Source: Bdellovibrionales bacterium
GTDB taxonomy: Bacteria; Bdellovibrionota; Bdellovibrionia; Bdellovibrionales; JAGQZY01
Reading direction: 5' to 3'
Length of the DNA: 64,000 nt
Assembly: GCA_964230555.1 (NCBI GenBank)
Contig: CAXRIX010000078.1
Span: 10 to 64,009, forward strand
Shown here piece after piece: positions 36,942-45,362 of this stretch. The stretch's first letter is position 1; each line of letters begins with the position of its first letter. The translations under genes and the position numbers were made by a program. A model generated the notes under the pieces. It was not told the origin of the DNA and ran no database searches. It saw nothing but the letters and a program-made list of their open reading frames with translations.

Positions 36942-37078
36942 AAAAACCTCCTATCGACTTTAGATTTGTTGGATTCTTGCTACTTTTTTCCAAGACCTTC
37001 CACTTGAAATCAAGACCTATGCCTTAAGACGTCGGCCTAGAATATAGACGTAAAGTCCTATTCCAGACTCAAGTCTCG

Positions 37079-37106
37079 TCAAGAAGCCAACACAACTCCC
37101 GAATAG
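37079..37106 (+). promoter_or_regulatory. Weak candidate sigma-28-like promoter upstream of flagellin (TCAAG-N15-CCGAATAG)
   Basis: TCAAG at 37079..37083 and CCGAATAG at 37099..37106, about 50 nt before the ATG. The -10 deviates from CCGATAA. Confidence 0.3.
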
Positions 37107-37157
37107 TGGGGTGTTAAAAGTGACAAAAGTTTTTTAAAAAAAACGGGAGGAAACAAT

Positions 37158-37991
37158 ATGTCTATGCGAGTTGCTACAAATATGTCGGCGATCAATGCTC
37201 ACCGAACGATGCAAAAGAATAACCTGGCGATCCAAAGCAGTTTCGAAAAACTGTCTTCTGGTAGCCGAATCAACAAAGCTGCGGACGATGCTGCTGGTCT
37301 AGCCATTTCTGAAGGCTTGAAAGCGCAAATTCGTTCAGCCAGCCAAGCTAAAAGAAACACCAACGATGCGATCTCTTTAGTGCAAACTGCTGAAGGTGGT
37401 TTAAACGAAATTGGAAACATCGTTATCCGTCTTCGCGAGTTGGGAATCCAGGCCGCTTCTGATACCGTTGGAGCTGACGAAAGAGGCTTCATCAACGCAG
37501 AGGTTGCTCAACTTAAAGAAGAAATGCAACGAATCGCCGAAACAACAAAATGGGGAACGACCAACTTACTTGATGGATCAACTCCACAGTTTGATTTTCA
37601 AGTGGGAATCTTCAACAGTGACTCATCTGATCGAATCAGCTGGGATGGCGGAGCGAATGTCGCAACGATCGATGCTCTTGGTTTGTCCGCACTTGATTTC
37701 TCAGACAAAGTCGGAGCACAAAACGGCTTGGCTGAGCTTGATGCAGCACAAACTGAAGTGAACAGAATCCGCGCCAACATTGGTGCTGTTCAGAACCGTT
37801 TCAACTCCACTGTTTCGAATCTATCGAGCATGGAAGAGAACCTTTCTGCTGCGAACAGTCGAATTCGCGATACAGACATCGCTGCTGAGACTGCAAACTT
37901 AACTAGTAATCAAATTTTAATGCAGGCAAATACCGCAACATTAGCTCAGGCTAATCAGAAGAATCAACTTGCTTTGCAACTTCTAGGATAA
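37158..37991 (+). CDS. fliC: Flagellin
   Basis: 277 aa with N-terminus MRVATNMSAINAHRTMQKNN...LSSGSRINKAADDAAGLAISE and C-terminus TANLTSNQILMQANTATLAQANQKNQLALQLLG. GGGAGG RBS. Confidence 0.95.
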   Translation: MSMRVATNMSAINAHRTMQKNNLAIQSSFEKLSSGSRINKAADDAAGLAISEGLKAQIRSASQAKRNTNDAISLVQTAEGGLNEIGNIVIRLRELGIQAASDTVGADERGFINAEVAQLKEEMQRIAETTKWGTTNLLDGSTPQFDFQVGIFNSDSSDRISWDGGANVATIDALGLSALDFSDKVGAQNGLAELDAAQTEVNRIRANIGAVQNRFNSTVSNLSSMEENLSAANSRIRDTDIAAETANLTSNQILMQANTATLAQANQKNQLALQLLG

Positions 37992-38007: not shown

Positions 38008-38041
38008 CAGGGGGGATCATGGGGGTCCCTCCTGTTTTTTT
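38008..38041 (+). terminator. Rho-independent terminator after flagellin
   Basis: A caggggggatc...gggtccctcctg hairpin followed by a T7 run. Confidence 0.6.
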
Positions 38042-38196
38042 GTCTGGGTAAATAAGACCAACTGTTCGATTTAAGCCAAAATGACCTGCCGGTATTCTGT
38101 GGCGGGCGCGTTAAATCGGTTTCCTTTTGACAATTTTAGCCACCTATCGAAAATAAGCCTTTCGCAAATGTAAATCCGACGGGGGATTTCTATAAT

Positions 38197-39000
38197 ATGG
38201 CTAAGAAGAAGAAAACCACACGCAAAAAAGTGATCAAAAAGAAGGCACCAGGTCGTAAGAAGAAGACCAACAAGAAAAAGGCGCCTGGACGCAAGAAAAA
38301 GGCTCCAAAAAAGAAAGCGTCTCGCAAGAAGGCTTCAAAAAAAGTCTCCAAAAAGAAGGCGAAAAAGAAAACGACCCGCAAAAAAGCCAAAAAAAAGGTA
38401 AAGAAAAAGGCGAAGAAAAAAGCCACCAAGAAAGCTTCTAAAAAGAAAGCTAAGAAGAAAGCCACATCTAAAAAGAAGGCTAAGAAAAAAGCGGCTAAAA
38501 AGGCGAAGAAAAAAACCTCTAAGAAAAAAGCTAAAAAGAAGGTTTCGAAAAAGAAAGCCAGTAAAAAAGCGACGCCTAAAAAAACAACCAAAAAGAAGGC
38601 GGCTCCAAAAAAGAAAAAAGATGAGAAAAAAGAAGTGGCTAAGGCCAACGATGAGGCCGCTAGTGGTGGTTTAACCAAACCCGCAGTCCCCTCCTTTGAG
38701 GACATCTTGTCTTCAGACACTGATGAAAAGCCAATCCTTGGAGCCAACCCGTTTAAAGTTGAAGAAGACAAAGATAAGCAACGCTCTTTCTTTGACGACG
38801 AAGACGATTTGAGTGACATGGAAGAGCTTCGTGGCGATATGGACAGCCTGGGTAGCACTGAAGATTCCGATGAGTTTGAAGAAGCTGAAGAAGACGAACA
38901 GGACGATGATGATCTGTTTGATGATCCTGAGCTCAACCCCTTCGACGATCTTGATGATGACAACGATTTTGACGAAGATGACGAAGGCTCCTACTTCTAG
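38197..39000 (+). CDS. Charge-bipolar protein: histone-H1-like poly-Lys/Ala N-half plus poly-Asp/Glu C-half
   Basis: 267 aa. By my count residues 1-150 hold about 84 Lys and 5 Arg (KKKA/KKAS-type repeats). Residues 151-267 hold about 49 Asp/Glu, ending DDLDDDNDFDEDDEGSYF. The gene is monocistronic between two terminators. Confidence 0.75.
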   Translation: MAKKKKTTRKKVIKKKAPGRKKKTNKKKAPGRKKKAPKKKASRKKASKKVSKKKAKKKTTRKKAKKKVKKKAKKKATKKASKKKAKKKATSKKKAKKKAAKKAKKKTSKKKAKKKVSKKKASKKATPKKTTKKKAAPKKKKDEKKEVAKANDEAASGGLTKPAVPSFEDILSSDTDEKPILGANPFKVEEDKDKQRSFFDDEDDLSDMEELRGDMDSLGSTEDSDEFEEAEEDEQDDDDLFDDPELNPFDDLDDDNDFDEDDEGSYF

Positions 39001-39037: not shown

Positions 39038-39066
39038 AAACCACCAGTCATTGGTGGTTTTTTTTA
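39038..39066 (+). terminator. Rho-independent terminator
   Basis: ccacca-gtcat-tggtgg stem-loop followed by a run of 9 T. Confidence 0.75.
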
Positions 39067-39143
39067 TCCACTCCCCCATTAAATATCTCAACCTTAGAAC
39101 CCGACCCTAATCGACGTACCGTTTGGGTTTTAATAAATACGTG

Positions 39144-39902
39144 CTATTCGATGCAGAGTTCGCCTTGGCTGTGGAACAGGGCCGTCAACCAACCTTGTGA
39201 TTCATTGATCTCTTTTTGACGTTGAGTGAATTCGGGGATAATCGCTCCACCTTGCTTTTTAAGGTTGAATGTTAGTCCTAGATAACTGGAATTTTCGATC
39301 AATAAATCAATGACATGGGCGTGGAATGGCTGAACGAATTCTTCGTACTCTTCGGCTGTGAAGTCGCGACGAATCTTGTCTGCCAGTTGTTGTTCTAAGT
39401 CTGAGTCGACGTCACTAAATATATTGTGACTCTTTAGCTCTGGGCACTCTGTCTCTAATAGCTCTTGCAAGGGCAGAATCCCCTCCTCCAATCGTTCTCC
39501 CAGATTAAAGTGAGTGGCGGTGCAGATGGGTTGTTCAATACGCACTTGAAGCCGGCTCGGAGTCAACCTGTTGACTCTCAAGAGACTTCTAATTTGGCTT
39601 TCTTTTTGCGCCTGGGTTGACCAGCTCACGCTTCTGAACAGATCGATATAACGACGGCGCACCGTTACTGCTGGATTCATACTATAGGAAAAATCGACGC
39701 GATCTTGCTGCAAATTGACGTAAGCGGAAAGATCACATTGATGAATAATTTTAACTTCTACCGGTGGTGCTGAGGACGTTACGGTCGAAGCCGACTGCTC
39801 TTGGCTGGCCGTCCCGTTGCTCTGATTGACGCCCTCTACGACGCCACAGGCTCCTACAATAAGTAACATGAAATAAGAGATAATTTGTATGGCTACCTTC
39901 AC
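39144..39902 (-). CDS. Hypothetical lipoprotein
   Basis: GTG 39902 gives MKVAIQIISYFMLLIVGAC (lipobox LIVGAC) with a GGGGGG run upstream. The ORF-track TTG start is at 39914. No recognisable domain. Confidence 0.6.
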   Translation of the reverse strand: MKVAIQIISYFMLLIVGACGVVEGVNQSNGTASQEQSASTVTSSAPPVEVKIIHQCDLSAYVNLQQDRVDFSYSMNPAVTVRRRYIDLFRSVSWSTQAQKESQIRSLLRVNRLTPSRLQVRIEQPICTATHFNLGERLEEGILPLQELLETECPELKSHNIFSDVDSDLEQQLADKIRRDFTAEEYEEFVQPFHAHVIDLLIENSSYLGLTFNLKKQGGAIIPEFTQRQKEINESQGWLTALFHSQGELCIE

Positions 39903-40136
39903 AATGCCCCCCAATGCTTGGTTTCCGCTATACCTTTATCATTATGCCCCCGCTCGTCACATTATGACATGTCTCATTTTAAGATAGGATTCTCATTGAT
40001 TTTAAGGGTTTAGCCACGTTTTCGTCGGTAGCAAGCGAAGCTCGATCGTAGAGTTTAGACAACAATAGAATTTTTATAAGCCCTATGCCCCTTAGGTTTT
40101 TTTTACAATATAACCAACGGAGCAGGAGTTATTGCC

Positions 40137-41018
40137 ATGGGATCTTTTTTTTCAATCATTTTATTAATGCTAACCAGTTTTGCGTCGACGGGTTTTTCCC
40201 AGTCCATGCTTGTCGACGACGGCTTGAGTCCCCTGCAACGTTTCGAATCGGGCTATCGAATTTCCGGAGTCTACAATGCCAATAGTATTTTGTATTGCTC
40301 CCCACAAGCCCAGCGGACACACATCCCCCAGTTGCTCCCCGATTTGTACGTTTTAAAACAACTTCCCTCTGGAGCCCTATTAACAACTCAGAATCAGATT
40401 CAAAACTATAACAATCTTATCAAACGTGCTTTGGATACTCTTTCAGAGCAAAATGATGTGGCAACATTGAACAAACATATATGTACAGGATTTTATATCG
40501 ATCGAGACAGTCACATTGGCAACGCCTTATCTTTCATCCATGGTTATTTGATATTTGACTACAAGATGATCGAACACCTGTTTTCACTCCCCGATGAAAA
40601 GCGTACTTTTTGGGTCGAGGATTTTTTGGTGCTACATGAACTGGCTCACCAACTGCAATACTGGAATAATGATGGCGAAGTTTTAAAAACTCTCAATGGT
40701 GAGCAAAGCGCAAAAAGGCCCGAACTTGCGGCCGATTGTGCCGCCGGCGCTTTGATTAAACTCATGAATCTTGATCTTCCCTTAGAGTTATACACCCTCA
40801 GTTTTTCCGGTGTCGAAAATGCAGCCGAGTTGATTGGCGATGATGCTATTGACGACCCCACTCACCACGGGCTTCCCGATGAGAGAAGACAGGCTGTTCG
40901 ATACGGATCGGATATGATTACAGCCTTACGCCCCTTTATCAAAAATAAGACTTTAAAGGTGTCCAGCCGGTACATCCTTGACAACTGCAACCAATTTGTC
41001 CGCGACCAGCTTGACTGA
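40137..41018 (+). CDS. Secreted YpfJ-like putative neutral zinc metallopeptidase
   Basis: Signal peptide, then in order HELAH (HExxH), PELAADCAAG, AELIGDD and THHGLPDERRQAVRYG. This matches the YpfJ/Zn_peptidase motif order HExxH...ELQADCxAG...IGDD...THG..R..F..G. Confidence 0.65.
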   Translation: MGSFFSIILLMLTSFASTGFSQSMLVDDGLSPLQRFESGYRISGVYNANSILYCSPQAQRTHIPQLLPDLYVLKQLPSGALLTTQNQIQNYNNLIKRALDTLSEQNDVATLNKHICTGFYIDRDSHIGNALSFIHGYLIFDYKMIEHLFSLPDEKRTFWVEDFLVLHELAHQLQYWNNDGEVLKTLNGEQSAKRPELAADCAAGALIKLMNLDLPLELYTLSFSGVENAAELIGDDAIDDPTHHGLPDERRQAVRYGSDMITALRPFIKNKTLKVSSRYILDNCNQFVRDQLD

Positions 41019-41156
41019 TTGAAAGATTTTAATAAATAGAGCTTTTAACAGTGATCGGCTTGAGATTAGTCGCGCCGAAGTTCCAAGCCCCGACGTCGTT
41101 GGACTCAATCAGCAACCGAGCCAATCTGAAGGAAAAAACCTCGACAGCGTTTCCGA

Positions 41157-42500
41157 TCAGTTTGCCGATAGTGTGACTGCATTTTTCTGGTTGCGTTCCG
41201 AAAGATATTTGGCGACATAAACCAAAGTCAGAAAAGTAAAACCCCAGATCAGTTTGTTATTATATCGCGACAGTGGTTCAGAAAAGAAACCAATGGCAAT
41301 ACAGTTTAAAATATAGGCGGCGATGTAATAATAGACGACTTTTTTTTCGTCATCAAAAATAAGGTTTTTAATAAACAATAGGCATAAAACCAGCAAGGTC
41401 ACTAATGAAACTGCAAAAAATATAGAACCCGAAATATTCGTATAGTTTTCAAAAGAGATTGTGCGACCATTAAAAATGTTTTGATTAGCAAAAGCCATAA
41501 TACTGGCTTCACCGGCATATTTGCCGTATTGCCGATACAGAGTGATATCGTCCAAAATTATTGGCATTGGCTTGGCGAAGAGAACGGCTTGCAAAAGGCT
41601 TTGCTCCACCCCCTTAAAGAGGTACGACCAAATCAATCTTGATTTTAGAATCTCCTGATTGGCCTGTACCACACTCGGTAAAATATTGAGACCTGGTGCC
41701 ACGCTGTTGGGAGACCTATCACTATTCCAGATAGCGAAATGTCTATTTTTTGATTCACAAAAGACCATCTTTTCGTCAGGACACTTTTGTGAAAAATAAA
41801 CCTCAGTGATTTGAAAGGCTACCAAACGTGAGTAAACAAAGTAATGTGCAGACTCCTCAAAACTCTTTTTTGGGAAGAAAAACAGGAACCGCACCGACAA
41901 AATTGTTAGAACGACGCCAACCCCAGCAAACAAGGCCCGCCGATAGTTTTTTGAGAAATGAAAAATGACCAACGGGATAACACAGATAAAGTTTGAAAAA
42001 TGCATGAATGAGAAAAACGCCGTAGCTAAAAAGTAAAAAGGGCGTTCGGAGGTCCGACATAAAAAGAACCCAATCATCGCGAAAAATGCCAGCGGGCTGA
42101 AAATGTCAGGCATGATAAAGTTACTGACATGAAGCAAAGGCGTCAGCATCAGCAAGATTCCGATAGCAAAAAATACTTTTCTTTGGCATTCCGGCCAGAT
42201 AAGGCGGCTGAACTTAAAAAGGAAACCGACCACCAGAGCGTTCTGCAGAAAAACCACTCCCAAAAAACCGGCCACTTCAAAGGGAGCCCTTAAAAAAAGA
42301 CTGTAAGTCAAAGGACGCCAGGCAATGCTGGCTGGCTCCAAAAGATGAAAAGCATTATAAACATAATAGGCGGAGTCGTAGTAACTTAATGGAAACCCAT
42401 TCAACAAGCTTGGCAGAGTCCAGAGACCTGCAAGAATAAAGCAGACCAACCCATCGAGGATGTGGCTCAGACCACCTAGACCTTTTCTTAGATTTCCCAT
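41157..42500 (-). CDS. Polytopic integral membrane protein (possibly a GT-C-type glycosyltransferase)
   Basis: 447 aa with at least 10 hydrophobic segments. The functional guess rests on topology only. Confidence 0.4.
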   Translation of the reverse strand: MGNLRKGLGGLSHILDGLVCFILAGLWTLPSLLNGFPLSYYDSAYYVYNAFHLLEPASIAWRPLTYSLFLRAPFEVAGFLGVVFLQNALVVGFLFKFSRLIWPECQRKVFFAIGILLMLTPLLHVSNFIMPDIFSPLAFFAMIGFFLCRTSERPFYFLATAFFSFMHFSNFICVIPLVIFHFSKNYRRALFAGVGVVLTILSVRFLFFFPKKSFEESAHYFVYSRLVAFQITEVYFSQKCPDEKMVFCESKNRHFAIWNSDRSPNSVAPGLNILPSVVQANQEILKSRLIWSYLFKGVEQSLLQAVLFAKPMPIILDDITLYRQYGKYAGEASIMAFANQNIFNGRTISFENYTNISGSIFFAVSLVTLLVLCLLFIKNLIFDDEKKVVYYYIAAYILNCIAIGFFSEPLSRYNNKLIWGFTFLTLVYVAKYLSERNQKNAVTLSAN

Positions 42501-43267: not shown

Positions 43268-44299
43268 TTAAGCTTTTTTCGGTTTGCTGTGGATTGCAAA
43301 CTTCTCAAACTCACCGTACTCGTGCAACTTGTTGTAAAGTGTCTTGATGGTGATTCCAAGAGCGTTAGCGGCTTGGGTTTTGTTTCCTTCAAAGTAGTTC
43401 AGCGCTTTAATAATGTGGCGCTTTTCAAGCTCATAAAGAGTCATTGAAGGATCATACTCATCCATCGAGATGCGATTCTCAGGATTCACTATGGAGTTTG
43501 GTAGATCACTGGCAACAATGATTTCGCCATCCGCTAAGATTTGCAAACGCTCACAAAGGTTTTGCAATTCACGAATGTTTCCTGGCCAGTCATACTTCAT
43601 CAAAATTTGCATTGCTTCTTCGCTCATTTTGCGACCGCGGTTCAAAATTCTTGACGTGTTTTTGGCAAGAAAATGCTCCACTAACAATGGAATGTCTTCC
43701 TTACGTCGACGCAATGGCGGCGAGTGAACCGTAATCGTGTTGATTCGGTAATAGAGATCTTCACGGAAAGTGCCCTTCATAACTTCAGCATCCAACTCGC
43801 GGTTGGTTGCTGAGATCAATCGGATATCAACCTGGATAGGCTCTTTACCACCGACTCGGTAAACCTCTCCTTCTTGGATGAAGCGCAAAAGCTTGGCTTG
43901 CATTCCTGGGCTTAACTCACCAATCTCATCAAGGAACAGGGTTCCTCCAGAAGCCATCTCGGCCAAACCGATTTTCTTGGCATAGGCTCCAGTAAAAGCG
44001 CCTTTTTCATGACCAAATAGCTCACTTTCAAGGAGAGTCTCGCGGAGAGCTCCACAGTTGATAGCGACAAAAGGTTTGTCACGACGTTGGCTTTTTGAGT
44101 GGATGGCATGGGCTAAGAGCTCCTTACCGGTTCCACTTTCACCTAATATCAGCACAGAAGCGTTGCTAGGAGCGACTCGGTCAACCATCCTCATGACCTG
44201 TTTCATTAGGTCCGATTTGTGTATAACCTGGTTTCCAGCTAAAATTGGATTAGAGGCACCACCAGTAATAGGGCTACCCGGAAAAGTTGTATTTGACAT
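43268..44299 (-). CDS. Sigma-54-dependent transcriptional activator without an N-terminal sensory domain (PspF/HrpS-like architecture)
   Basis: ATG 44299 (MSNTTFPG...) with GAGGTGG upstream. Walker A GESGTGKE, intact GAFTGA (ELFGHEKGAFTGA), REDLYYRIN and a C-terminal Fis-type HTH. Only about 30 aa precede the AAA+ core. Confidence 0.85.
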   Translation of the reverse strand: MSNTTFPGSPITGGASNPILAGNQVIHKSDLMKQVMRMVDRVAPSNASVLILGESGTGKELLAHAIHSKSQRRDKPFVAINCGALRETLLESELFGHEKGAFTGAYAKKIGLAEMASGGTLFLDEIGELSPGMQAKLLRFIQEGEVYRVGGKEPIQVDIRLISATNRELDAEVMKGTFREDLYYRINTITVHSPPLRRRKEDIPLLVEHFLAKNTSRILNRGRKMSEEAMQILMKYDWPGNIRELQNLCERLQILADGEIIVASDLPNSIVNPENRISMDEYDPSMTLYELEKRHIIKALNYFEGNKTQAANALGITIKTLYNKLHEYGEFEKFAIHSKPKKA

Positions 44300-44357
44300 A
44301 CGTACCACCTCATTTGTTTCTTTTTGATACAACGTATCATTTTGACACGGAGTATAT

Positions 44358-45362
44358 GTGCAGCGCGTAAAAAATGCAAGAAAAAATTCAAAAACATGCA
44401 CTTTTTCCAATGAAATCGAAATAAACGGTAGTTCAGGTTCTCTGGATCTTGGGGAGTACCTATGCAAATACCTGGAATATCTCGATTTCCAGTCTGGTCT
44501 CTCCCCACACAGCCTCCGCGCCTATAGCACAGATGTACTGCAAGTTTTTCAACTTGATACTTTATATATTCTTTCTGGTCCGAAAATCAATGGGGACAGC
44601 CACTATTTTGTGCAATCTAACGAAAAACAAACAATTACAATGGGATATAAGGATTGGGCGGCGCGCGGGATGGAAAAGCTCCGATCTTGGGACGATATCT
44701 CAATAAAATCCCGCAAAAGGAAAATATCCAGCCTCAATGGATTTCTAAATTGGCTGCGCAGTTTTCACAATATTGATCTGGGCCTGAAGGTCGAGGCGCC
44801 GCGCGGGGTTCACCGAAAGCTTCCTCACTTTATCTCCATGGACGAATGCCTGGGTGTTCTGCAATTCCTGGCCAAAGATCCCATCACAAGTAAAAAAATC
44901 CAACAGCGTAAATTGTTTTCTCTTCTCTATGGGTGTGGGCTGCGGATTTCAGAAGCTTGCCAAGTGCAATGGTCTGACTTCAAGTTTGAGAAGCGGACTT
45001 TGTTAGTGCGAGGAAAAGGCAATAAGGAACGCCTGGCGATCATACCGAAAAGCGTTTGCCTGTCTTTGCAAAAAGAAGAACGAAAAGGCCCCTTTCTATG
45101 GGGTGACAAGCCCTTACCCACTCGCAGCGCTTATCAACGCATCAAAGACTTAGGCAAGGAAAGCGGATTGTTAAAGCCACTTCATCCCCACGCTCTTCGC
45201 CACAGCTATGCCACACACCTTCTAAGTAGTGGATCAGATTTGCGAGTTCTGCAGCAACTTCTTGGTCACCAGAGCCTTGCAGCCACTGAACTTTACACCC
45301 ATCTGGATATGGATCAATTGGCTAATACTATGGAGGCTCACCATCCCCTATCAAAAAAATAA
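44358..45362 (+). CDS. Tyrosine site-specific recombinase, XerC/XerD family
   Basis: 334 aa with a GTG start and GGAG 5 nt upstream. N-terminal SAM-like LSPHSLRAYSTDV. Catalytic region GLRISE...HALRHSYATHLLSSGSDLRVLQQLLGHQSLAATELYTH. Confidence 0.85.
   Translation: MQRVKNARKNSKTCTFSNEIEINGSSGSLDLGEYLCKYLEYLDFQSGLSPHSLRAYSTDVLQVFQLDTLYILSGPKINGDSHYFVQSNEKQTITMGYKDWAARGMEKLRSWDDISIKSRKRKISSLNGFLNWLRSFHNIDLGLKVEAPRGVHRKLPHFISMDECLGVLQFLAKDPITSKKIQQRKLFSLLYGCGLRISEACQVQWSDFKFEKRTLLVRGKGNKERLAIIPKSVCLSLQKEERKGPFLWGDKPLPTRSAYQRIKDLGKESGLLKPLHPHALRHSYATHLLSSGSDLRVLQQLLGHQSLAATELYTHLDMDQLANTMEAHHPLSKK

Follow-up and report, generated by a model that had tools for sequence, protein, structure and literature searches.

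A clade-restricted gene of Bdellovibrio-like bacteria encodes a histone H1-like polylysine tract fused to a conserved acidic tail

In a 64,000-nucleotide stretch of DNA from a Bdellovibrionales bacterium (GenBank assembly GCA_964230555.1, contig CAXRIX010000078.1, positions 10 to 64,009 of the forward strand; henceforth the window), an open reading frame (ORF) at 38197..39000 on the forward strand starts with ATG and encodes a protein of 267 amino acids with an extreme charge asymmetry, referred to here as the poly-K/acidic protein. In residues 1-150 there are 84 Lys and 5 Arg against 3 acidic residues (net charge +86), whereas residues 151-267 hold 31 Asp and 18 Glu, i.e. 49 acidic residues against 7 basic ones (net charge -42), the chain ending in ...DDLDDDNDFDEDDEGSYF with the tail DDEGSYF. 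Our recount agrees exactly with the numbers of Lys, Arg and Asp/Glu given in a first-pass annotation of the window, and the purine-rich coding tract of about 430 bp that it described was measured at 75% purine across the first 430 nucleotides of the ORF. That the poly-K/acidic ORF is a real gene follows from its low ratio of non-synonymous to synonymous substitution rates (dN/dS) and from the conservation of its promoter, Shine-Dalgarno element and terminators; it is a monocistronic, clade-restricted gene of a Bdellovibrio-like organism.

For the comparisons the boundary between the two halves was set at residue 146/147, directly before a conserved EVAKAN. So divided, the N-half carries a net charge of +85 and the C-half of -41, giving +44 for the whole protein. 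Lysine accounts for about 58% of residues 1-146 (Lys 83, Ala 23, Thr 11, Ser 8, Arg 5, Pro 5), and all 10 aromatic residues of the protein fall in the C-half, with zero in the N-half. The acidic half had been described as being of nearly matching size, which is roughly true of its length (121 against 146 amino acids) but not of its charge. Over the full protein the fraction of charged residues is 0.55 and the net charge per residue +0.165. The segregation of these charges is not a chance property, since the charge-patterning parameter kappa (0.51) exceeds the values of all 1000 shuffled sequences (0.15 +/- 0.025, maximum 0.24). The acidic half can mask at most about half of the poly-Lys tract and full auto-neutralisation is impossible; the net charge lies between +25 and +49 in all orthologues examined, and the protein is therefore a strong polycation even with its tail fully engaged. 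The sequence contains neither a signal peptide nor a hydrophobic segment (only 6 of the 146 N-half residues are hydrophobic), which argues for a cytoplasmic protein. The elements of the gene, all on the forward strand, are as follows.

38008..38044, forward strand: intrinsic terminator of the upstream flagellin gene, an 11-bp stem followed by a T-run, found by the terminator scan with its hairpin at 38008-38034; alignment A2 shows this hairpin unchanged across five loci
38104..38157, forward strand: conserved promoter block GGGCGCGTTAAATCGGTTTCCTTTTGACAATTTTAGCCACCTATCGAAAATAAG of about 54 nucleotides, with a -35 TTGACA at 38127-38132 and a -10-like GAAAAT at 38149-38154
38181..38186, forward strand: Shine-Dalgarno-like GGGGGA, 10 nucleotides before the ATG; GGGGGA/GGGAGA is conserved in alignment A2
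38197..38634, forward strand: polycationic N-half, residues 1-146, with 83 Lys and 5 Arg, 3 acidic residues, no aromatics, isoelectric point (pI) 11.9
38635..38997, forward strand: acidic C-half, residues 147-267, with 49 Asp/Glu, 8 Lys/Arg, 10 aromatics, pI 4.05
39038..39067, forward strand: intrinsic terminator of the poly-K gene, a 10-bp stem followed by a T-run, found by the terminator scan with its hairpin at 39038-39060

Relatives of the protein proved to be scarce in databases. A search with the acidic half matched only 3 metagenomic proteins, 1.84 billion representative proteins searched exhaustively with a profile gave 7 matches, and a second profile search added 1 more. All of these database matches (P0001-P0007 and P0009) are short C-terminal fragments of 74-145 amino acids, and in the underlying DNA a poly-Lys coding tract lies directly upstream of every one of them. 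The poly-K plus acidic layout was recovered in 11 other loci, six of which are intact in frame as in the window: L002 (274 amino acids), L003 (238), L004 (276), L011 (229), L012 (247) and L013 (about 262). These intact orthologues were obtained by scanning a single genome for each GTDB species together with Joint Genome Institute (JGI) metagenomes, a back-translated DNA pattern for DDPELNPFDDL serving for the metagenomes. Together with the window there are thus seven intact in-frame copies, reaching down to 47% identity, and in L001, L005, L007, L008 and L009 the same layout is present but interrupted, through gaps or errors of assembly. Two of the named sources are metagenome-assembled genomes (MAGs) of uncultured Pseudobdellovibrionaceae, and the third is a Bdellovibrionia MAG. 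The closest locus, L002, belongs to one of the uncultured Pseudobdellovibrionaceae MAGs and its C-half is 96% identical to that of the window, which places the window in that family.

Members of the family can be defined by a Lys-rich tract that takes up about 105 amino acids or more at the N-terminus and is joined to an acidic region spanning about 85-121 amino acids (120-121 in the closest relatives), with motifs of the types NPF[KR], EEL[RH]GDMD and DLF[DE]DP..DDLD and a terminal aromatic-Phe, all of which the window protein possesses. The fusion of the polycation to the acidic half appears to be ancestral and obligatory, as none of the 11 other informative loci lacks it. The H1/Hc1-like composition of the N-half and the covalently attached acidic half, both pointed out in the first-pass annotation, thus extend to every family member inspected. 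Of the searches for homologues that it had suggested, those with profiles of the acidic half delivered the present family, all named members of which are Pseudobdellovibrionaceae or Bdellovibrionia MAGs. With the N-half, the bias-corrected search found no related protein and only one borderline, unrelated Lys-tailed match (P0008), homology of this half being undetectable because of its low complexity.

Comparison with L002 gave dN/dS values of 0.06 for the N-half and 0.02 for the C-half (dS 0.65-1.1), and strong purifying selection acts on both halves. One could suspect, given the low-complexity DNA, a 257-amino-acid mirror ORF on the other strand and several frameshifted metagenomic copies, that there is no functional protein here at all, only a purine-rich tract open by chance or a decaying gene. 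This explanation is effectively refuted by dN/dS values of 0.02-0.06 at saturating dS, by the seven intact in-frame orthologues, by the non-random arrangement of the Lys codons (see below) and by the conservation of promoter and terminators; the frameshifts, for their part, sit in error-prone contigs. The mirror ORF itself (window 38190..38963, reverse strand) is rich in Phe, Ser and Leu and reflects the AAG/AAA/GAN low-complexity tract. Counterparts are seen in every related locus, and it is an artefact that should not be annotated, because the substitution pattern fits the forward frame.

The damaged copies deserve some attention of their own. The frameshift of L001 lies at a run of nine A (A9), L008 and L009 are frameshifted too (in low-coverage or long-read-style contigs), and L007 carries a different frameshift, with an intact twin, L012, in another sample. 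The L005 copy is broken by a run of N. In L013 the ORF is intact and the gene caller had chosen an internal start. The frameshifted copies sit in contigs of 2x coverage or otherwise prone to error. Since assemblers and gene callers break the gene in these ways (frameshifts in or near A-runs, a run of N, internal starts), protein databases probably contain too few of the extreme poly-Lys proteins, and the present family serves as a cautionary case of a gene so systematically broken that proteins of its type are under-counted. The copies concerned are located as follows.

L001, 4571-5438: copy broken by a frameshift
L005, 3560-4360: copy broken by a run of N
L007, 1121-1875: copy broken by a frameshift
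L008, 2330-3228: copy broken by a frameshift
L009, 480-1211: copy broken by a frameshift
L013, 4503-5312: intact copy, miscalled from an internal start

The two halves have evolved in different ways. The N-half is built of repeats of the types KKKA, KKAS and KKKAxKKK that recur about every 4.5 amino acids, and Tandem Repeats Finder detects periods of 12, 27 and 81 nucleotides in the window tract. Its length, for which the first-pass annotation had proposed a check among strains, varies between 117 and 159 amino acids among the closest relatives, the differences being insertions and deletions of repeat units. What is kept is charge and composition, not sequence or length, a pattern as would be expected for non-specific electrostatic binding. 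In L013 (4503-5000), a member of the more distant GNYF sub-lineage, the tract consists of three tandem copies of a unit of about 45 amino acids (KKKKTAKKKKVSRKKxGKKVTGKASKKKKxVKKKKAS.KVSG), and it thus grows by duplication of large units and not by small insertions and deletions alone. Short DNA-binding motifs within the N-half were considered and set aside, as neither PGRKKK (present twice, AT-hook-like) nor the single TPKK (SPKK-like) is kept across orthologues.

A tract so rich in AAA and AAG had been thought prone to slippage, and here the data point the other way. The two Lys codons are interleaved in the gene (AAA 54%, AAG 46%, against 70% and 30% in the long ORFs of the window) and the longest A-run is 8. 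Reshuffling the gene's own Lys codons gave a mean longest A-run of 10.4 (P = 0.005) and about 3.7 runs of at least 9, and reshuffling with the Lys codon usage of the window gave a mean of 11.5 (P < 0.0002). A-runs likewise do not exceed 8 in five of the six intact orthologues, against shuffle mean maxima of 10-11.6. This implies that slippage at A-runs, in transcription or translation, is selected against and faithful synthesis of the complete poly-K chain favoured, which argues that the full-length protein matters. Programmed frameshifting or slippage as the source of the broken copies was rejected in view of the low-coverage or long-read-style contigs in which they occur, the intact twin L012 and the short A-runs.

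The acidic half, by comparison, is the conserved, motif-bearing part. It is 120-121 amino acids long in the five closest relatives, and among four sequences with 59-66% identity to the window 36 of its columns are invariant, including the short motifs VPSFEDI, NPFKV, EELRGDMD and DLFDDPELNPFDDLD and the terminal Phe. The very tip reads GSYF and, in the most distant members, GNYF, DSYF or ENLF, with the terminal Phe invariant throughout. Because both the exact length and the motifs are conserved, the C-half is predicted to make specific contacts, and its conservation points to specific binding rather than simple charge balancing. Its conserved elements are listed here.

38686..38706, forward strand: VPSFEDI, residues 164-170, predicted short helix (alignments A1 and A4)
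38746..38760, forward strand: NPFKV, residues 184-188, present in the window, L002-L004, L011, L013, P0001, P0002 and P0007/L009
Residues 195-199: QRSFF, an unchanging block of the C-half
38818..38850, forward strand: MEELRGDMDSL, residues 208-218, predicted amphipathic helix, better conserved than any other internal element; ELRGDMD is invariant in alignment A1 and reads EELHGDMD in distant members
Residues 239-255: DLFDDPELNPFDDLDDD, an unchanging block of the C-half, as is the tip DEGSYF
38911..38997, forward strand: C-terminal acidic-aromatic tail DLFDDPELNPFDDLDDDNDFDEDDEGSYF, residues 239-267, terminal Phe invariant

Neither half resembles anything described in family databases. Nothing significant was found for the full protein in Pfam, NCBIfam, PHROGs or PADLOC, nor for a profile of the C-half among PDB sequences, and the protein belongs to no characterised family; the acidic half scanned alone against Pfam, PHROGs and PADLOC was equally silent. 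At E <= 10 Pfam returned only two sub-threshold bias matches, CDC27 and Mitofilin, and an Rfam scan found no element. The acidic half would thus seem to be a new clade-restricted family without detectable relatives. AlphaFold2, given the alignment of the C-half, produced a model with a predicted template-modelling score (pTM) of 0.21 and a mean predicted local distance difference test score (pLDDT) of 62, in which there are three short helices, over EVAKANDEAAS, SFEDIL and DDLSDMEELRGDMDSLG. The full-length protein as a single sequence gave a pTM of 0.26, with one long helix at residues 40-124 and nothing globular. Conservation pattern and models together mark the protein as disordered, a compositional polycation with a tail of short linear binding motifs.

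Such a lineage-specific family in Bdellovibrio-like predators brings to mind a prey-directed weapon, predation effectors often being lineage-specific. The protein would then be a self-neutralised precursor, its acidic half an anionic pro-piece, as in cationic antimicrobial peptides, that shields the producer until export or cleavage, and the poly-K set free would make the membranes of the prey permeable or collapse its nucleic acids. A cationic part joined to an anionic one does resemble the layout of charge-neutralised defensin precursors. We regard this as improbable, given that a signal peptide or hydrophobic segment is lacking, that only about half of the positive charge is offset by the tail and that no secretion genes are adjacent. 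Moreover, the acidic half is the more conserved one, with motifs suggesting specific intracellular binding, and beyond EVAKAN the junction shows no conservation resembling a cleavage site.

Upstream of the gene, the flagellin gene at 37158..37991 (its homologues carry Pfam Flagellin_N/C) is followed by the strong terminator at 38008..38044, which appears to isolate the poly-K gene from flagellin transcription. With the second hairpin at 39038 and a putative promoter of its own, the gene is monocistronic and bracketed by two terminators, as had been proposed. The putative promoter, TTGACA-N16-GAAAAT at 38127-38154, is sigma-70-like (10 of 12 matches in a simple scan), and transcription from it is predicted to begin at about 38160-38165. 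It lies in a block holding GCGTTAAAT ... CCTTTTGACAAT-N9-CCTATCGAAAAT that is near-invariant in the window and L001-L004 while the flanks diverge. Between the hexamers, and reaching into the -10 by two bases, there is an invariant CTATCGA, which could act as an operator or belong to an unusual -10. L001-L004 have TTGACA-N11-CTATCGAAAAT without any change, and it can still be recognised in L007 and L009. Two copies sit in different neighbourhoods without flagellin and still have the block: L013 (4330-4374) as TTGACAAT-N9-CTATCGAAAAT, exact, downstream of a ParA-like gene and transposases, and L008 (2148-2190) as TTGACAAT-N9-CTACTGAAAAT, with two mismatches. In both the block is about 150-180 nucleotides upstream of the start codon, which implies a long 5' untranslated region there. 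The poly-K gene thus seems to carry its own conserved putative promoter wherever it sits.

Two other promoter types were considered. The attack-phase FliA (sigma-28) consensus of B. bacteriovorus is TTAAG-N16-CCGATA (PMC3627812). A clear promoter of this kind was rejected for the poly-K gene, as TTAAA and the CGA-core are 32 nucleotides apart and not 16, and the alternatives match at 2-3 of 5 and 4 of 6 positions. No sigma-54 -24/-12 element was seen by eye in the promoter region. Before flagellin (window 37027-37157) there is a loosely FliA-type TCAA-N15-CCCGAATA, again by eye, unlike the promoter of the poly-K gene.

The adjacency to flagellin, remarked on in the first-pass annotation, holds in the window and most loci (the poly-K gene is directly downstream of flagellin in the window, L001-L004, L007, L011 and L012, and L005 has one unrelated 251-amino-acid gene in between) but not in L008 and L013. 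Together with a disorder like that of FlgM, it could suggest a flagellum-related role, as a type III export substrate, a regulator or a chaperone-like factor. We consider such a role very improbable. A strong conserved terminator and a separate promoter stand between the two genes, that promoter does not fit the FliA consensus, the protein has no similarity to any flagellar family of Pfam or NCBIfam, and the L008 and L013 copies keep the promoter block away from flagellin; the adjacency is therefore local synteny and not a functional link. Membership in a flagellar operon was rejected on the same grounds.

The remaining neighbourhood (ClpB, an alpha/beta hydrolase, flagellin, three genes without Pfam domains and a sigma-54 activator) offers no functional clue. 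The three genes without a Pfam domain, at 39144-42500, encode proteins of 256 amino acids (reverse strand, with a lipoprotein-like start, LIVGAC), 293 amino acids (forward strand) and 447 amino acids (reverse strand). The first of them is also present in L002. Beyond them lies the sigma-54 activator (43268..44467, reverse strand), which nearly adjoins the poly-K gene in L001, L005 and L012. The stretch 39144-42500 looks for this reason like a lineage-specific insertion.

What might such a protein do? We tentatively favour, without counting it as probable, an H1/Hc1-like polyanion binder of the nucleoid whose acidic tail regulates it in cis, recruits a partner, or both. The gene product would be an intrinsically disordered cytoplasmic protein of two modules. 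Its N-half would bind polyanions independently of sequence, most probably chromosomal DNA, neutralising phosphate charge, promoting compaction and possibly turning helical when bound; by simple arithmetic, the roughly 85 positive charges of one molecule would suffice to neutralise some 40 bp. In the free protein the C-half would fold back electrostatically on part of the polycation, keeping it soluble, speeding exchange and limiting irreversible aggregation of DNA. When DNA outcompetes the tail, the exposed motifs could bind a specific putative partner or the N-half of a neighbouring molecule, leading to bridging or coacervation. Nucleoid compaction, auto-inhibition and phase separation, all raised in the first-pass annotation, are in this sense plausible. 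The analysis itself shows the composition, the pattern of conservation, the disorder, purifying selection, a conserved promoter independent of flagellin and a narrow taxonomic range. DNA as the ligand, the fold-back, the recruitment of a partner and the link to a compact attack-phase nucleoid are what we infer, by analogy with H1/prothymosin-alpha, the acidic tails of HMGB1 and of SSB and T7 gp2.5, AlgP and chlamydial HctA/HctB. The biological setting is suggestive, as the exceptionally compact nucleoid of non-replicating Bdellovibrio is still unexplained and the nucleoid-associated proteins listed for it include no H1-like protein (bioRxiv 10.1101/2025.09.24.678257).

Several observations weigh against a nucleoid binder. 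The profile search of 1.84 billion proteins, with its 7 metagenomic fragments only, returned no homologue in cultured B. bacteriovorus, and the protein can therefore explain compaction at most in its own clade, not across Bdellovibrio-like organisms. All members of the family come from uncultured MAGs or metagenomes. The promoter is sigma-70-like and not FliA-like, so that attack-phase-specific expression is not indicated by its sequence, and the AlphaFold models are uninformative on the fold-back. Besides, RNA, ribosomes or polyphosphate would be no poorer ligands of such a polycation than DNA.

This last point leads to a different assignment, in which the poly-K half organises another polyanion (polyphosphate granules, rRNA and ribosomes, or bulk RNA) and the acidic tail sets granule spacing or condensate properties; possible models are a granule tether like AlgP or PhaF and the silencing of ribosomes in the non-growing cell. 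AlgP, the best-studied bacterial H1-like protein, is indeed found on polyphosphate granules and controls their spacing (PMC9239181). The composition of the N-half gives no specificity for DNA over other polyanions, and a charge segregation as strong as the kappa value indicates favours coacervation. We nevertheless find this assignment rather doubtful: no ppk, phasin or ribosome genes are linked at the locus, the folded N-terminal domain of AlgP and PhaF is absent, and DNA is the most abundant fixed polyanion available to a +85 tract.

A more elaborate version of the nucleoid-binder reading would make the protein a linker histone and its chaperone in a single chain. The poly-K half would hyper-compact the chromosome of the small, non-replicating predator cell, and the tail would combine a prothymosin-like release or fluidising element with a docking tip for a partner (such as a bacterial histone-fold protein, the receptors of SSB tips or RNA polymerase), so that compaction is reversible at the switch to growth. 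H1 and prothymosin-alpha bind each other with high affinity in a disordered polyelectrolyte complex whose exchange is rapid and competitive (PMC7661507), and this fold-less electrostatic complex speeds exchange on DNA (PMC7661507; bioRxiv 10.1101/2020.04.17.046243). In this detailed form we hold the proposal to be unlikely.

If the nucleoid-binder reading is true, the protein would provide a natural one-chain model of the ultra-charged disordered complexes of the H1/prothymosin type and a candidate for the extreme nucleoid compaction of Bdellovibrio-like predators, in this clade at least. The invariant acidic-aromatic tail of 29 residues would also be a handle to find the interacting machinery.

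To our knowledge no bacterial H1-like polycation permanently fused to a conserved motif-bearing polyanion has been known, and neither a homologue nor a description of such a fusion turned up in the library and literature searches made. Among known systems, the chlamydial histone homologues Hc1 (HctA) and Hc2 (HctB) are the nearest in composition, being bacterial, Lys/Ala-rich and H1-like. Coxiella Hq1, also Lys/Ala-rich and H1-like, is grouped with them for developmental condensation. HctA and HctB are thought to remodel the chromosome at the developmental transition (PMC13317200), condensing it as a small non-replicating cell forms, and the same biology would be expected for an attack-phase cell. 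However, no homology to the Hc1 or HC2 families was found in Pfam or NCBIfam at E <= 10, the Lys density is higher here (58% over 146 amino acids), Hc1 and Hc2 are without a long acidic half, and in the poly-K/acidic protein it is the acidic tail and not the basic part that is conserved.

With Pseudomonas AlgP (AlgR3) and PhaF the protein shares long, disordered Lys-rich repeats that vary in number, DNA or polyanion binding (predicted in our case) and a comparable net charge (+55 for AlgP, +35 for PhaF and +44 here); AlgP binds both the nucleoid and polyphosphate granules through its Lys-rich disordered tail (PMC9239181). The architecture is a different one. AlgP and PhaF have Pro-rich repeats of the KPAA type that are C-terminal to a folded helical or phasin N-domain, whereas the KKKA/KKAS repeats described here hold 5 Pro in 146 amino acids and are N-terminal, the other module being a disordered acidic tail.

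The likeness to H1 plus prothymosin-alpha lies in the pairing of a polycation of about +50 to +85 with a disordered polyanion of about -40, here with both partners in one chain; unlike that pair the parts are covalently linked and bacterial, and the analogy is compositional only. Residues 1-146 correspond to the Lys/Ala/Pro/Ser/Thr-rich disordered basic domain of linker histones, a resemblance of composition only, and the winged-helix globular domain (Pfam Linker_histone) was not found by Pfam at E <= 10, with an AlphaFold pTM of 0.26 for the whole chain.

In HMGB1, HMGA/CarD, SSB and T7 gp2.5 a basic part binds nucleic acid and an acidic tail behind it competes with DNA for that part, and the tails of SSB (...DDDIPF) and gp2.5 end in an essential, partner-recruiting Phe. 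The tail of the poly-K/acidic protein, likened to SSB-type tips in the first-pass annotation, is acidic and has an invariant Phe at its end, as the SSB tip does; it reads D-E-G-S-Y-F (GNYF, DSYF or ENLF in relatives) without Pro at -1, against D-D-D-[IL]-P-F in SSB. An OB fold had no match in Pfam, NCBIfam or PDB, and no beta structure is predicted. Myxococcus CarD is a bacterial case with an HMGA-type basic DNA-binding domain (PMC2919716). Here, Pfam matched neither an HMG box nor an AT-hook (R-G-R-P core) nor a CarD_TRCF domain, and PGRKKK, which occurs twice but has no GRP core, is not conserved in L003 or L004. At 121 amino acids and with several conserved internal motifs, the acidic part is far longer than the tails of HMGB1, HMGA, CarD, SSB and gp2.5. 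By analogy, then, the poly-K/acidic protein would combine a bacterial H1-like polycation, as in Hc1/Hc2, Hq1, AlgP/PhaF and the tail of HupB, with an auto-regulatory acidic tail, as in HMGB1, HMGA/CarD, SSB and gp2.5, and appears to be a member of none of these families.

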